Notes under the pieces: generated by a model
Seen by the model: the letters and a program-made list of their open reading frames with translations, nothing else
Database searches by the model: none
What the model was told of the DNA's origin: nothing
Part shown: positions 12,624 through 60,690 of the stretch, one piece after another
How positions within the stretch are numbered: the stretch's first letter is position 1
How the letters are laid out: each line of letters begins with the position of its first letter
Source of the DNA: a virus
Taxonomy: Duplodnaviria > Caudoviricetes
Length of the DNA stretch: 64,000 bases
Reading direction: 5' to 3' (one strand)
Virus record (IMG/VR): IMGVR_UViG_3300034161_000008
Location: 154,437 to 218,436 of that record
Program-made: the position numbers and the translations under genes

Positions 12624-12660
12624 CGGCATAAAGCCGGGCCCGAAGCCCGGCCTTATGCTG
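12624..12660. terminator. Bidirectional hairpin between convergent genes (TATGCCG family)
   Basis: CGGCATAAAGCCGGG ... CCCGGCCTTATGCTG inverted repeat between stops at 12618 (+) and 12668 (-). Confidence 0.8.
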
Positions 12661-13324: not shown

Positions 13325-13999
13325 TTAGATCTTAGTAGTCTTTGATTCTTCATGCTCGCTGCGATGCAATGCCAGACGGAATTCGATACCAGCCTTCCAG
13401 GTTAGTGTCGCACGAGCGCCGACCAAGAACGTAGTACCCAGCCAAGCCAGATACAGATCTTGTTCTTTGTCCGAGCCGTCTTTGGCTTTGGATTCTTCAC
13501 GACCGGTGTTCACCCAGCTCCAGGTGCCACCAACCAATTCCAGCAGGTGCATGCGCTTGGCATGGTCTGCTCCGTTGCGACCGGCCAATACAAACAGGGC
13601 CAGCTCCAGGGACATCGACGAGTGGTCGACGGTCATTGCTTTGTAGCCTTCGGACTTCTTGATCAGACGTTCGTAAGCTTCGAGGTTGTATTCGTGGGCC
13701 AGGTCAGTCAGGCGCAGTGGTTGGCCTTCGTGCTGGGTTGCCAATGCTGGCGGGATGTCGACAGGTGTGTTGATCACGAGGTTAGGCTCCACTGGAAGGT
13801 AATGTTTAGTGGAAGAATCTACAACGTGTTCGCTGTGCTGGTATTCGTTGTCGTGTGCCAGCTTATCGAGGGAGCCTTCTGCAAAGACTTTCGGTTGATC
13901 AGCATGGACGTGGTGAACGCCACCGGCTGCTGCTGCATCAAGTGCTTTAGCATTGTCGACGATAGTGCGTTTCTTGCGTTTGTACGATACAGCTACCAT
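13325..13999 (-). CDS. Hypothetical early protein with basic N-terminus (YKRKKR)
   Basis: 224 aa; RBS GAGG; early-type promoter about 60 nt upstream; no family recognised. Confidence 0.65.
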   Translation of the reverse strand: MVAVSYKRKKRTIVDNAKALDAAAAGGVHHVHADQPKVFAEGSLDKLAHDNEYQHSEHVVDSSTKHYLPVEPNLVINTPVDIPPALATQHEGQPLRLTDLAHEYNLEAYERLIKKSEGYKAMTVDHSSMSLELALFVLAGRNGADHAKRMHLLELVGGTWSWVNTGREESKAKDGSDKEQDLYLAWLGTTFLVGARATLTWKAGIEFRLALHRSEHEESKTTKI

Positions 14000-14186: not shown

Positions 14187-14260
14187 AGAGAGTCCATTGG
14201 GCTCTCTTTTTTATGCCGCAAAATAAAAGAGGCTGCCTTTTTAGGGGCAGCCTCTATGCC
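14187..14260. terminator. Twin hairpins, each followed by TATGCC
   Basis: AGAGAGTCC-ATT-GGGCTCTCT-T5-ATGCCGC and AGAGGCTGCC...GGCAGCCTCT-ATGCC; the second can terminate the minus-strand 14262 ORF. Confidence 0.7.
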
Positions 14261-14261
14261 A

Positions 14262-15641
14262 TTAGGCCTGTGCGGTTTTGTGAGCCATGTCCACATGAAC
14301 TGCTTGACCAGAAGTCCCGGACTCGCGCTGTTCTTCAGCAGGAGCTGGGGTTTCTTTCGGCAGGCCGTATTCGTTGTTGAACGATACGAACACCCACTTG
14401 TCGTCTTGCAGTTCGCTCAGCGGGATTTCCGCCGTGGTGGTTGCAAAGCCCAGATCGACATCAACGATCACGGACTCATCACCCACTTCGCTGACGATAA
14501 CCTGAGTACCGATGTGTTCCAGTTGCAGGCGAACGCCTTTAGTGACTTTCGGAAGACGACGGAACAACGTTTCGAACAGACTGACAGAAATCACAGCCAG
14601 CTCGCTTTCACCGGTAGGTACGAAGCCACCGTACACCAGACCGCCTTTGCACTCGTTGGCTTCGAAGTAGCGCGAGTCAGCACCCAGGAGACGATAAGTA
14701 CCCAGCTGAACCGACAGATCAGGAAGACCGCTGATACGCAGTTCAGGATCGAAGGTTGAACGCAGCTCTACATCAGCACGAGCAACGTTGCTGTGGTGGT
14801 CAGCAATGTCGCTATCGGCCAGTTGCTGGTCGTCACCGGCCGGTGCACCCAGTTGACCAGTAACCATGAAGTTCGGTACGGCAATAGCCGACAGAGGTTT
14901 GGCTTCGCGTTGACTGATTGGTCCTGCAATCAGGCGCTGGTTGATGCTGAACTCGGCGTTGTCCAGTTCTTTGCCATCGACGTGTACGAACAGACGGATG
15001 TCTTCACGATTGATGCTGATCAGCAGGGAGGCGTCCTCGCCATCTACTTGAAAGCCAGCATCGGCGATCGGGATTTCGATACGTACGAAATTGTCGTTCG
15101 CACGCAGACGTTCTTGCAGCGGGGAACACAGCTTGATGATTTCTTCTTGGTTCGTGATGTTCATGTCGGGCTCGTCCGTCGTTGGTGGAGTCAGTTCCGC
15201 CGCAGGTGCATGCTCATTAACCCATTCAGCCATCTGCATCAGGGTAATGGTCGGTTCGCTGGCCATCACATTTCCGCGTTCGTCGCGGAATTGGAAGGTC
15301 AACTTTTGGGTGCCGGTGTCAAAGAACGCCAGATCAACTGCTTCGATCTGATTGTAGTGCGTGAGCACCGTGCCGAGAGGCAGGCCTTCCAGCTTGCGCA
15401 GGAGACCAGCCACCTTTGCCGCTGGCGTCGGGCCGGGGGCAGAGATAGCATCAACAGCAACCCAGTCAGGACTGTAAGCCAGCTCGTAAGTTGGCACCCA
15501 TTCCTTGTCGACCAGGTTTTCGTTGGTGTAGTAGTGCAGGGTATCGTTTTCACCCTTCTTGATGTACGTGCCTTCAGGCCAGCTTTCCAGCCGATAGGAG
15601 TGTCCACGTTCCAGGCCGTGCAGCGCTTGATTAAGATTCAT
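14262..15641 (-). CDS. Multidomain protein with N-terminal DUF2829/Tad2-like domain
   Basis: 459 aa; MNLNQALHGLERGHSYRLESW...YI...WVPT......DW matches the DUF2829 pattern by eye; the remaining ~400 aa are unrecognised. Confidence 0.55.
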   Translation of the reverse strand: MNLNQALHGLERGHSYRLESWPEGTYIKKGENDTLHYYTNENLVDKEWVPTYELAYSPDWVAVDAISAPGPTPAAKVAGLLRKLEGLPLGTVLTHYNQIEAVDLAFFDTGTQKLTFQFRDERGNVMASEPTITLMQMAEWVNEHAPAAELTPPTTDEPDMNITNQEEIIKLCSPLQERLRANDNFVRIEIPIADAGFQVDGEDASLLISINREDIRLFVHVDGKELDNAEFSINQRLIAGPISQREAKPLSAIAVPNFMVTGQLGAPAGDDQQLADSDIADHHSNVARADVELRSTFDPELRISGLPDLSVQLGTYRLLGADSRYFEANECKGGLVYGGFVPTGESELAVISVSLFETLFRRLPKVTKGVRLQLEHIGTQVIVSEVGDESVIVDVDLGFATTTAEIPLSELQDDKWVFVSFNNEYGLPKETPAPAEEQRESGTSGQAVHVDMAHKTAQA

Positions 15642-16413: not shown

Positions 16414-16449
16414 GGGCATAGGAAGAGAGGCCATCCAGCCTCTCTCCTA
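16414..16449 (-). terminator. Hairpin followed by TATGCCC
   Basis: GGAAGAGAGGC...GCCTCTCTCC; on the minus strand it is followed by CTATGCCC. Confidence 0.55.
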
Positions 16450-16456
16450 AGTTTGA

Positions 16457-16753
16457 TTATTGGTTGTCTTGATCGATTTTTGTTTCTTGAACGATGCGCG
16501 CTGCTTCATCCAGAAGCTTAAACGAATCATCCGCAGGGTTTTCGTACTCGATGTAGATACCATCTTTCCCGCCTTCGTAATCAGGGCGCTTGATGGTGGG
16601 GTTGAAACGGTCGAAGCACAAATTGTTGGCGCACTCAATGATCGTAGCACCATCCTTGTGGGCCTGGTAAATCACGTCATAGAGATTTGAAGGTGCTGCA
16701 TTAGCTGCCGAAGAAACGAGAGCCATTGCAACGAACAACGATTTGATTTTCAT
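16457..16753 (-). CDS. Small secreted/periplasmic protein
   Basis: 98 aa; Sec-type signal MKIKSLFVAMALVSSAANA. Confidence 0.65.
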   Translation of the reverse strand: MKIKSLFVAMALVSSAANAAPSNLYDVIYQAHKDGATIIECANNLCFDRFNPTIKRPDYEGGKDGIYIEYENPADDSFKLLDEAARIVQETKIDQDNQ

Positions 16754-16771: not shown

Positions 16772-17416
16772 TCAGGGCTTGGGAGGTATGTTAAAGTAGG
16801 CGTCCGCCCACTCCTTGAGTTGTTTCCGTACACTCTCCACATCACCGGTAGCGTCAATACGCACCATGCGGTGAGGATTCTTTCTGAATCGTTCTTCGTA
16901 ACCACGCTGTACGCGTCTGAAGAAATCCAACGATTCTTGGTCAAGTCTGTCAGCCTTACCACTACGACCCGCTAAACGTTTCATGCGAAGCTTTAGCGGA
17001 GCAGCAAAGTACAACGTGACGTCAGGTTCGAACCCGTTCAACACGATGCGCTCTAACAGTCTTACTTCCTTACGAAACCCACGACCCACGGCTTGATACG
17101 CCCACGACGAATCGGAGAAGCGATCGCACAAGACAGTGTTGCCTTGTTGCATGTGTGGTTCGATCACGCCTTTTACATGTTGCGAGCGAGCTGCCCACAT
17201 CAGTAAGAGTTCAGTGTGTTCTGTAAGTTGTTCTTGCGTACTTGGACGTGGCATCAACAGCTGCTCTCGAAACTGCTCAGCGATTGGTGTACCGCCAGGC
17301 TCACGAGTTCGGATACACGGCACCCCATTTTCCTTGAGGTAGTCAAATAGCCAATACAAGCCAGTGGTTTTGCCAGCCCCGTCGGGACCTTCAACTGTAA
17401 TGAATTTACCCGACAT
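16772..17416 (-). CDS. tmk: Thymidylate kinase
   Basis: ITVEGPDGAGKTT P-loop, TREPGGT, LCDRFSDSSWAYQ, DRLDQESLDFF. Confidence 0.95.
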   Translation of the reverse strand: MSGKFITVEGPDGAGKTTGLYWLFDYLKENGVPCIRTREPGGTPIAEQFREQLLMPRPSTQEQLTEHTELLLMWAARSQHVKGVIEPHMQQGNTVLCDRFSDSSWAYQAVGRGFRKEVRLLERIVLNGFEPDVTLYFAAPLKLRMKRLAGRSGKADRLDQESLDFFRRVQRGYEERFRKNPHRMVRIDATGDVESVRKQLKEWADAYFNIPPKP

Positions 17417-23188: not shown

Positions 23189-23222
23189 CGGCATAAAAAG
23201 CCCGACCGAAGCCGGGCTTTTT
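23189..23222 (-). terminator. Intrinsic terminator followed by TATGCCG
   Basis: AAAAAGCCCG...CGGGCTTTTT; on the minus strand it is followed by ATGCCGTC. Confidence 0.8.
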
Positions 23223-46724: not shown

Positions 46725-47167
46725 TGACGATCGTATTCGAAGGTGATGGTGACTTGTTCACCTCGAGTTGTGAGACACTAGTTTGTCCTGTCAATACCGT
46801 GGGTACTTTGGGGAACGGGTTAGCTGCTGCTTTTAAGTGGCGCTTTCCCGGTTTGCTGGAGGCGTATAAGGGAGCGTGTCAACGCAGTGTCTTCTCCGGA
46901 CGGGGGTTGTATTTGTGGGAATACCTGCCCGACAGGAAGATCTTATGTCTACCAACAAAAAGGCACTTCGCTAATCCTTCCAAGTTAATCTGGATCGAGA
47001 AGGCCTTAGAGATCCTGGCGGAAGACTGGGAAGAGCTTGGCATAACCTCACTGGGTATACCGATGATTGGCTGCGGAAAGGGGCAGTTAATGTGGGCCGA
47101 TGTGAGACCATTGATTTGGCAATACCTCGATCCCATTGACTTAGAGGTCAGCATCTTCCTGAAATAA
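46724..47167 (+). CDS. Macro domain protein (DarG/Appr-1''-p processing type)
   Basis: GDLF, CPVNTVGTLGNGLAAAFK, LPTK, IPMIGCGKGQL.W..V. Confidence 0.85.
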   Translation: MTIVFEGDGDLFTSSCETLVCPVNTVGTLGNGLAAAFKWRFPGLLEAYKGACQRSVFSGRGLYLWEYLPDRKILCLPTKRHFANPSKLIWIEKALEILAEDWEELGITSLGIPMIGCGKGQLMWADVRPLIWQYLDPIDLEVSIFLK

Positions 47168-60015: not shown

Positions 60016-60690
60016 TTAGAAAGGAATGTCGTCGTCGAAGGTATCGCCAGCCGGAGCCTGTTGAGGGCGCGGAGCTTGCTGTTGTTGTGGGCGACCGTTG
60101 CCGTCTTTCGGCTCAGGCTCTTTGTACTCGGTGACGATGATCTGTTCCATAACGGCCTGGATCAGAGTCATGTAGCCTTTGGCGTAGATCTTGGAGATCT
60201 CGCCTTTGCTGTATTCGGTGCCGTCTTCCTTGAACCAGTTGGCGAAGTCGCCAGGACCGATTGGGAATTTGATCTTCGGACGTTCGGCTTGTGGGGAGCA
60301 CAGGCTCAGCCAGATCACGCCTTCGTCGTCTTGACCGATCCAGAGCTCAGCAACAATCACTGGCTTCTCGGAACGACGGCCACCAGGGAAGATGAAGTTC
60401 TTCAGCTGGACTTTGTTACGGCACTTGCCCGGTGCGTCGATCGCAACTTGCAGGAAGTGCATGATGGCGAACAGGTCAGGCGAACCCATTGGGCCAGTGA
60501 TACGACCGTTGTCGTTCTTGCTGTCGTTCGGGTCGTTGGTGTAAACGGTGATGCGCGGGTTGTTGCCGGTGATGCCCCAACCGAACGTAGACCACTTGCC
60601 TTGGGCCGAAGGGCATGGCGTGGAGAGTTTCAGCTTTGCATGATCCAAAGCATTCTTTTTACGTTGTGGGAACTGCTGGTTGCCTGCCAT
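60016..60690 (-). CDS. chmC: Nucleic-acid-binding protein ChmC/Imp6 (phiKZ gp67 position) with SSB-like tail
   Basis: 224 aa beta-rich core, Q/P linker, ends DTFDDDIPF; position upstream of the gp68-like gene. Name inferred from synteny. Confidence 0.55.
   Translation of the reverse strand: MAGNQQFPQRKKNALDHAKLKLSTPCPSAQGKWSTFGWGITGNNPRITVYTNDPNDSKNDNGRITGPMGSPDLFAIMHFLQVAIDAPGKCRNKVQLKNFIFPGGRRSEKPVIVAELWIGQDDEGVIWLSLCSPQAERPKIKFPIGPGDFANWFKEDGTEYSKGEISKIYAKGYMTLIQAVMEQIIVTEYKEPEPKDGNGRPQQQQAPRPQQAPAGDTFDDDIPF

Follow-up and report, generated by a model that had tools for sequence, protein, structure and literature searches.

What does a domain of the Tad2 (DUF2829) type do at the head of a 459-amino acid (aa) protein of a jumbo phage? 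Few phage counter-defence folds are as widespread as Tad2, and surveys have centred on short stand-alone forms: one study carried out its binding-site analysis on 120-170-aa versions only, and another excluded proteins above 500 aa. The stretch of DNA analysed here (64,000 nucleotides, hereafter the window, whose positions are used throughout) is the final 64 kb of virus record IMGVR_UViG_3300034161_000008, which is 218,436 bp long and has terminal repeats. An earlier note on it, made from the letters alone, had read 15453-15641, the opening 63 codons of a 459-codon minus-strand open reading frame (ORF), as a Tad2-like signal-sponge domain joined to a multidomain remainder, and had proposed an anti-defence protein or a sensor coupled to an effector. 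We find that the N-terminal module (D1) of this protein (P0001) is a homologue of Tad2 and, in the predicted structure, shares its fold. The protein as a whole would best be explained, with a probability that we put at about 40%, as an exapted Tad2 core within a late modular adaptor for phage-host interaction, rather than as a small early stoichiometric sponge. In this nucleus-forming jumbo phage, the Tad2 fold heads a long modular protein; the aromatic cradle of the pocket is kept and its polar contacts are lost.

The motif M1-x-L3-x-x-A6-L7-x-x-L10-x-x-G13 ... W21 ... W48-V-P50 ... D59-W60 runs through D1. The version drawn by eye in the earlier note is present, except that R17 stands four, not three, residues before W21, and the invariant Arg of canonical proteins aligns to L18. 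Pfam model PF11195, the sole match of the whole protein at E ≤ 1, is matched from end to end (aa 1-62 on model positions 1-72/73), although at 15.2 bits (E 0.032) and thus below the gathering cut-off of 25 bits. Every family member scores below this cut-off, with sub-threshold matches also in seven of the nine relatives (four close ones and three of the four distant ones; best P0007, 23.8 bits, E 6.7e-5), compared with 62-95 bits for six canonical Tad2 controls that were rescanned. Aligned with hhalign to 12 canonical DUF2829 proteins of cultured phages, SPO1 Tad2 included, the N-termini of the family match end to end over 63 columns (probability 95.9%, E 6.5e-9), whereas modules D2, D3 and D4b of the same protein, taken as control domains, give E 0.18-0.38. 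When the profile built from the ten N-termini was run against all PDB sequences, the seven best matches were chains of Tad2, ModTad2, HgmTad2/AcrIIA7 and SptTad2 (E 0.04-0.55), and there is no Tad2 chain among the matches of the D2, D3 and D4b profiles. Solved Tad2 proteins are SPO1 gp34.65 (8SME/8SMF/8SMG), ModTad2 (9EIB, 8V3E), HgmTad2/AcrIIA7 (8KBI-8KBM) and SptTad2 (8WJD). The Tad2 likeness claimed for the first ~63 aa is thereby borne out.

All structural statements refer to one AlphaFold2 (AF2) model computed from the ten-sequence family alignment alone, with neither templates nor Tad2 sequences. Its mean predicted local distance difference test (pLDDT) score is 68, with 85-92 in D1, where the prediction meets the Tad2 fold: an N-terminal helix on an antiparallel sheet, then a C-terminal short helix and strand. 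In a fold search, 63 of 85 residues of SPO1 Tad2 and 64 of 103 residues of HgmTad2 align, at 18-27% identity to solved Tad2 proteins. A preceding model from six sequences was usable in D1 alone, and the Foldseek matches of D1 pointed to Tad2. This low identity, together with the sub-threshold Pfam scores of all family members, could be taken to mean that the resemblance is due to chance or to convergence on a common small alpha/beta fold. Such an explanation is practically excluded because of the distance between the hhalign E-value of D1 and those of the three control domains, and the top seven PDB sequence matches, all of them Tad2 or AcrIIA7, speak against it as well. The net charge of D1 compared with canonical Tad2 is not discriminating.

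In SPO1 Tad2, the pocket for glycocyclic ADP-ribose (gcADPR) lies between two protomers of a tetramer; W25 and W73 form its walls, N26 and D79 make polar contacts to phosphates and hydroxyls, and S76, T78, D67 and H71 are also involved; V-shaped dimers pack via alpha2 and beta2, and the dimers interlock along alpha1 (bioRxiv 10.1101/2023.05.01.538930). The HgmTad2 equivalents are W21, N22, G23, W87, S90, T92 and D93, and the substitutions W21A/N22A and S90A/T92A/D93A markedly lower gcADPR binding; in addition, a beta2-beta5 insertion (residues 32-72; 36-59 in SPO1) makes a separate cyclic-dinucleotide pocket (bioRxiv 10.1101/2023.11.15.567273). Cyclic UMP (cUMP) is predicted to bind at the same insertion interface in MoTad2 (bioRxiv 10.1101/2025.08.24.671296).

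Eleven residues are invariant in all 12 canonical DUF2829 proteins, namely G17, R22, G24, W25, N26, G27, W73, S76, D79, D84 and W85. Their P0001 counterparts in the hhalign register are G13, L18, S20, W21, P22, E23, W48, T51, L54, D59 and W60, i.e. five are identical, one is conservative and five are lost. The canonical WNG becomes WPE, R22, G24 and D79 are also replaced, and the losses include phosphate and hydroxyl contacts. Across the family the position after the first Trp is Pro, His or Ala and never Asn (0/10), SPO1 N26/G27 (HgmTad2 N22/G23) being replaced in all ten members. The Ser-x-Thr-Asp helix (SPO1 S76/T78/D79) reads T51, E53 and L54 in P0001, and the residue at the D79 position is Leu in P0001-P0003, Gln in P0004, Glu in P0005 and P0006, Asp in P0007-P0009 and Ser in P0010. 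The stacking tryptophans, in contrast, are kept: W21 is invariant, and W48 is found in nine of ten members, with Tyr in P0010. The earlier note had named absence of the pocket residues as a reason to give up its reading, and the outcome is divided, with W21 and W48 present but the Asn-Gly and D79 contacts gone.

The beta2-beta3 insertion is absent in D1, where a five-residue turn (aa 30-34) takes its place and the hhalign alignment has a gap of about 24 residues. Since the alpha2 dimer interface and the second pocket of solved Tad2 proteins are missing with it, binding of cyclic di-GMP (c-di-GMP) or cyclic GMP-AMP (cGAMP) of the HgmTad2 type would not be expected. As far as sequence and model go, D1 is a genuine homologue that has kept the aromatic cradle, changed its polar chemistry and lost the second pocket. 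A complex prediction with four D1 copies scored 0.00 and, run without controls, has no bearing either way on oligomerisation.

These features lead us to the following model of an exapted core. The N-terminal module would have descended from a Tad2/DUF2829 sponge fold, stripped to its core and with the canonical signal-binding chemistry lost. D1 would no longer soak up gcADPR and could serve as a docking or self-association head, or bind something other than the known signals. The protein would be made late from a phage promoter of the non-virion RNA polymerase (nvRNAP) type, together with the product of the gene directly upstream (the partner), while its conserved C-terminal barrels may bind a macromolecular target of host or virion, and P0001 and its partner would act as a pair in phage-host interaction. 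Several points weigh against this model. Every DUF2829 protein that has been characterised by experiment is an immune-signal sponge, and DUF2829 is able to shift specificity, e.g. to histidine-ADP-ribose (His-ADPR), N7-cyclic ADP-ribose (N7-cADPR) and cUMP. Both pocket tryptophans are kept despite deep divergence, and a ligand site could thus survive; Asp is found exactly at the D79 position in P0007-P0009, and position 53 or 54 is acidic in nine of ten relatives.

Signalling defences operate in the cytoplasm, unprotected by the phage nucleus, and this counts for the main rival explanation, an altered-specificity sponge. Here the inter-protomer pocket of D1 (W21, W48) would sequester a nucleotide signal, perhaps none of those yet known, and the other modules would add binding sites or a tether, as in the Tad2-Acb4 and Tad2-Sequestin fusions. 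We regard it as doubtful, though not far-fetched. It is consistent with the homology of D1 to Tad2, the conservation of both tryptophans in a domain that has diverged to about 20-25% identity, the Asp of P0007-P0009, the functional plasticity of the Tad2 family and the existence of Tad2-sponge fusions that inhibit two systems (PMC12265669; phage BS162P1 as control), and the fast evolution with gain and loss of domains would fit an arms race. Nevertheless, the Asn-Gly after the first Trp, which makes the diphosphate contact and is present in 12/12 canonical proteins, is replaced in 10/10 family members, D79 is Leu in P0001, and the insertion for the alpha2 dimer interface and second pocket is absent. 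D2, D3 and D4 are unlike Tad2, Acb4 (PF13876) and Sequestin (PF21825). A chain of 459 aa per half pocket is also expensive, because each Tad2 pocket forms between two protomers. Finally, the promoter motif is of late type and the synteny fixed rather than patchy; a small early sponge would be atypical here because the gene is strictly syntenic behind a late-type TATG motif.

The Pro/Ala linker and the further domains noticed earlier are real, as judged from both the alignment and the AF2 model. P0001 is, in the prediction, a Pro/Ala-linked "beads-on-a-string" protein consisting of D1 and four further small modules (D2, D3, D4a and D4b; Table 1) that are split by low-confidence Pro/Ala/Thr/Glu-rich linkers, and the last two modules look like SH3/Tudor/KOW barrels. 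D2 is kept in all ten family members, with invariant L80, L84, D103, L114 and W140, while D3 is found only in the long forms P0001-P0007 and is missing from the 303-347-aa forms P0008-P0010. The most conserved region is D4b, with 29-41% identity in the most distant members versus 20-26% for D1; it carries the motif LFE-x-LF-x-x-LPK-x-TKGVRL and invariant L355, F356, G369, L372, G378, V383 and W416.

No catalytic or effector family was detected in aa 65-459 by Pfam, PHROGs, NCBIfam, PDB profiles or fold search. The four sub-domains of P0001 gave nothing against Pfam at E ≤ 10, D3 has no family or PDB sequence match, and D2, D3 and D4 showed no similarity to Tad2 or to either of its known fusion partners. 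A sensor-effector, in which D1 would detect an immune nucleotide of the host and thereby switch a C-terminal enzyme or toxin, would account for the architecture, a ligand-binding-type N-terminal fold followed by further domains, and for that only. We consider it very improbable: in the 390 residues that follow D1, nothing effector-like or catalytic was found to which it could be coupled as the earlier note proposed, the modules that can be identified are predicted small SH3/Tudor/KOW-like barrels, and the ligand contacts of D1 are degenerate. As to an anti-defence or sensor function in general, the homology and the multidomain build stand, whereas the functional reading is weakened by the pocket, the missing insertion, the missing effector and the late-type context.

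Tandem barrels of the SH3/Tudor/KOW type, such as KOW6-KOW7 of Spt5/DSIF (5OHQ) and the Tudor-like domains of CarD and the UvrD/PcrA C-terminus, are the closest known counterparts of the predicted C-terminal modules. The scores of these barrel matches are within the range of common arrangements, without a sequence relationship, and function is not transferable from them. We also considered D2 and D4b as degenerate Tad2 repeats, which is unsupported by sequence, as neither gives a Pfam match or a Tad2 PDB chain. In hhalign, D1 gave E 0.3 with D2, 0.09 with D4b and 0.67 with D3, and D2 gave E 0.044 with D4b over 59 columns. The predicted H-E-E-E-E-H-E order is alike in D1 and D2, and D4b has one extra strand. 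By these comparisons of sequence and predicted element order, a distant structural Tad2 repeat in D2 or D4b is unsupported. Searches of D2 and D4b from four relatives against Pfam yielded nothing beyond one weak Ham1-like match, in D2 of P0008 (aa 74-142; L005:6001-7044), where the isolated domain gave PF01725 Ham1/ITPase-like at E 0.007 and NCBIfam XTP/dITP diphosphatase at E 0.13; found in one relative only, it is probably due to chance.

The window encodes phiKZ internal head proteins (PF12699, twice), head-tail proteins (PF24214/PF24215) and DUF7941 proteins, the latter reported to be exclusive to chimalliviruses and to build the virion "fibre cloud" in phage Goslar (bioRxiv 10.64898/2026.04.21.720040). 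These marker families place the source among the phiKZ-like jumbo phages (chimalliviruses). Of the cultured phages, Burkholderia phage FLC9 (head-tail protein 46% identical) and Ralstonia phages RP12/RP31/RSL2 come closest to it, and no relative of P0001 was found in these or in the other cultured phages searched. FLC9 gp323/gp324, tried as positional counterparts, proved unrelated. The family comprises about ten proteins, all in one uncultured chimallivirus clade: a word-indexed search gave five close relatives, and an exhaustive profile search of 1.84 billion representatives gave five clusters, adding P0007-P0010. Searches of a phage collection by DNA and by protein, and a pattern scan of IMG/VR, gave no further relatives. 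No short stand-alone relatives of D1 turned up in a search for them, and a canonical stand-alone Tad2 was not found in the phage itself. ESM Atlas feature searches with aa 285-432 and aa 74-262 gave no usable match.

Six phages of the clade share one gene order (6/6). In the direction of transcription, head-tail genes are followed by (usually) thymidylate kinase, a protein of about 100 aa with a signal-peptide-like N-terminus, the 238-269-aa partner, the P0001 gene, a 171-224-aa protein and the DUF7941 fibre genes. The ATG of the P0001 gene overlaps the partner stop by 1 nt (TAATG), with GGAG 8 nt upstream, and the two genes may be co-translated. The partner family (L004:5189-5998, L011:5207-5998, L005:5196-5996, L008:5201-5974 and L009:1916-2632, besides the gene in the window) shares an invariant C-x4-C close to the N-terminus and, towards the C-terminus, a conserved beta-rich region; it has no match in Pfam, PHROGs, NCBIfam or PDB sequences. 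A relationship between the partner and P0001 was looked for by hhalign, Pfam and PDB, and nothing was found. Identity between phages is 46-72% for the neighbours, 23-54% for P0001, 29-48% for the downstream gene and 23-26% for the partner over near-full-length alignments (20-27% across the partner family). Partner, P0001 and downstream gene thus diverge two to three times faster than the neighbours, with D3 gained or lost in addition. The C-terminal double barrel and the partner gene are new, fast-evolving candidates for chimallivirus phage-host interaction.

A GC-rich hairpin, followed within 0-4 nt by TATG(C), is located 22-34 nt before the partner ATG in all six phages (L004, L005, L006, L008, L009 and L011), with stem sequences that differ. 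The consensus of the phiKZ late promoter is TATG, with the G as start site (PMC4666361). We read the hairpin-TATG unit as a putative terminator combined with a late promoter of the nvRNAP type, from which late co-expression of the partner and P0001 would follow. A hairpin with T-run and TATGCC also precedes the head-tail block at 23195 (-).

Strings of small barrels joined by Pro/Ala linkers are common in adhesins and cell-wall binders. P0001 could accordingly be virion-associated, as a baseplate or fibre component or accessory, or as a packaged protein ejected with the DNA, with D1 and the barrels as structural or adhesion modules. This we hold to be unlikely. The gene does have the head-tail block on one side and the DUF7941 fibre genes on the other and runs in the direction of the late structural operon, it shares the hairpin-TATG unit with the structural block at 23195, the DUF7941 proteins are those of the Goslar fibre cloud, and rapid divergence would fit host recognition as well. 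On the other hand, no homologue was found in the cultured phages searched, FLC9 as the closest being without a counterpart; the block also contains clearly non-structural genes (thymidylate kinase and the putatively secreted 98-aa protein); and no DUF7941 module or docking repeat was found in P0001. Tad2, SH3 and sponge go unmentioned in the Goslar virion study (bioRxiv 10.64898/2026.04.21.720040). It is also conceivable, but quite improbable, that a late-made, possibly virion-borne Tad2-derived protein still binds a host immune nucleotide through the tryptophan cradle, as a pre-loaded counter-defence or as a reader of an alarm signal. If so, its ligand recognition chemistry would be unlike that of every solved Tad2.

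The exapted core that we favour has only partial parallels among known systems. Fusions of Tad2 have been published, Acb4-Tad2 in Pasteurella phage Pm86 and Sequestin(PF21825)-Tad2, and these inhibit two systems (PMC12265669); our control, a 208-aa protein of Bacteroides phage BS162P1, matches PF21825 and PF11195 and is a Sequestin-Tad2. The premise of the earlier note that Tad2 proteins stand alone is thus incomplete, and since such fusions are already known, a fused Tad2 is not new in itself. Like them, P0001 has a DUF2829 module joined by linkers to other modules in a phage protein. The published fusions, however, contain Tad2 in canonical form (BS162P1: 70.6 bits, WNG and S..D kept), usually at the C-terminus and beside a known sponge, whereas in P0001 it is N-terminal and degenerate, and neither Acb4 nor Sequestin is recognised in the modules beside it. 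Short cores do occur elsewhere in DUF2829: the proteins of Mycobacterium phage Curiosium (gp4, 72 aa) and Serratia jumbo phage Yubaba (81 aa) are also very short there, with little or no beta2-beta3 insertion, as in D1. Unlike D1, both keep WNG and S-x-x-D, score 62-91 bits and stand alone. From the canonical Tad2, of ~70-100 aa, P0001 differs by its 459 aa with four extra modules, by the lack of the beta2-beta3 insertion and by its setting in a chimallivirus, where its synteny is fixed and its promoter motif of late type.

Three features are new: a degenerate minimal Tad2 core placed N-terminally, ahead of a long series of small modules unrelated to it; the presence of such a core in a chimallivirus; and the constant location of its gene in an operon of late type, beside a partner that co-evolves with it. 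Should D1 bind a ligand, the pocket chemistry of sponges would be wider than known, and this would be the first Tad2-type activity in chimalliviruses. Should it bind none, it would clearly exemplify how a sponge fold can be put to new use for structure or docking, and would be a warning against annotating every DUF2829-like match as an anti-Thoeris sponge.

Table 1 Features of the P0001 locus, with positions in the 64,000-nucleotide window
Feature	Position	Strand	Basis and remarks
Whole gene, 459 aa (P0001)	14262..15641	-	ORF list and translation; net charge -36, isoelectric point 4.6
D1, aa 1-64: minimal Tad2/DUF2829 core	15450..15641	-	alpha1, four strands, short helix, last strand
Linker 1, aa 65-76, Pro/Ala-rich	15414..15449	-	P+A+T+E fraction 0.67; pLDDT <50 at 71-76
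D2, aa 77-145: alpha/beta module	15207..15413	-	alignment; pLDDT ~80
Linker 2, aa 146-160, Pro/Thr/Glu-rich	15162..15206	-	composition; pLDDT <50
D3, aa 161-262: beta-sheet module with long helix	14856..15161	-	alignment; pLDDT ~70-80
Variable disordered linker, aa 263-305	14727..14855	-	low conservation, indels; pLDDT 25-35
D4a, aa 306-352: predicted small beta-barrel, Tudor/SH3-like	14586..14726	-	
D4b, aa 353-429: helix and predicted SH3/KOW/Tudor-like barrel (aa 363-429)	14355..14585	-	
C-terminal tail, aa 430-459, acidic, low-complexity, variable	14265..14354	-	alignment; pLDDT ~30
Partner gene, 249 aa	15641..16390	-	directly 5' of the P0001 gene in 6/6 phages; synteny, alignment
Intrinsic terminator directly 3' of the P0001 stop	14228..14255	-	10-bp stem, 7 GC pairs, T-run
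Hairpin 16421-16447 and TATG 16417-16420	16417..16447	-	27 nt before the partner ATG
Downstream gene, 224 aa (relatives: 171-224 aa), fast-evolving	13325..13999	-	synteny

Some weaker matches were noted in passing. In PHROGs, D1 (aa 1-65 of P0009 and P0010; aa 1-64 of P0001 and P0007) matches phrog_6670 (120 positions; D1 on 1-60, E 2.5e-4 to 5e-4) and phrog_1048 (211 positions; D1 on 110-195, E 0.0045-0.03). Neither PHROG has an assigned function, and both may represent further families of DUF2829 type that carry additional modules. Six-frame PF11195 matches at 60448-60537 (+) and 46874-47035 (+), with E ~0.07, 11.7 bits and part of the model covered, are probably due to chance. The whole AF2 model matches large uncharacterised viral proteins in BFVD, namely A0A977KMI9 (1017 aa), UPI001E7F1430 (1038 aa) and gp579 of Bacillus phage G, with 300-500 columns aligned at E 1e-6 to 3e-4 and low TM; these may be similar strings of small barrels.

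Upstream of the partner, the gene at 16457-16753 (-) encodes a protein of 98 aa that contains two Cys and whose N-terminus resembles a signal peptide; it is syntenic in 6/6 phages at 46-57% identity and looks like a secreted or periplasmic phage protein within the late block. The thymidylate kinase gene at 16772-17416 (-; PF02223, E 6.6e-44) stands among structural genes in five of the six loci and is missing in L008. Hairpins 3' of the P0001 gene are also present in L004, L011, L005 and L009. In the window, terminator hairpins lie back to back on both strands (14187-14255) in the 262-bp gap after the P0001 gene, the plus-strand one without a plus-strand gene. Further hairpin-T-run-TATGCC(G/C) sites are found at 12630 (-), 12654 (+), 14212 (+), 14255 (+), 47826 (-), 47854 (+) and 55100 (+), and some copies of the unit are two-facing, with CGGCATA before the hairpin on the opposite strand.

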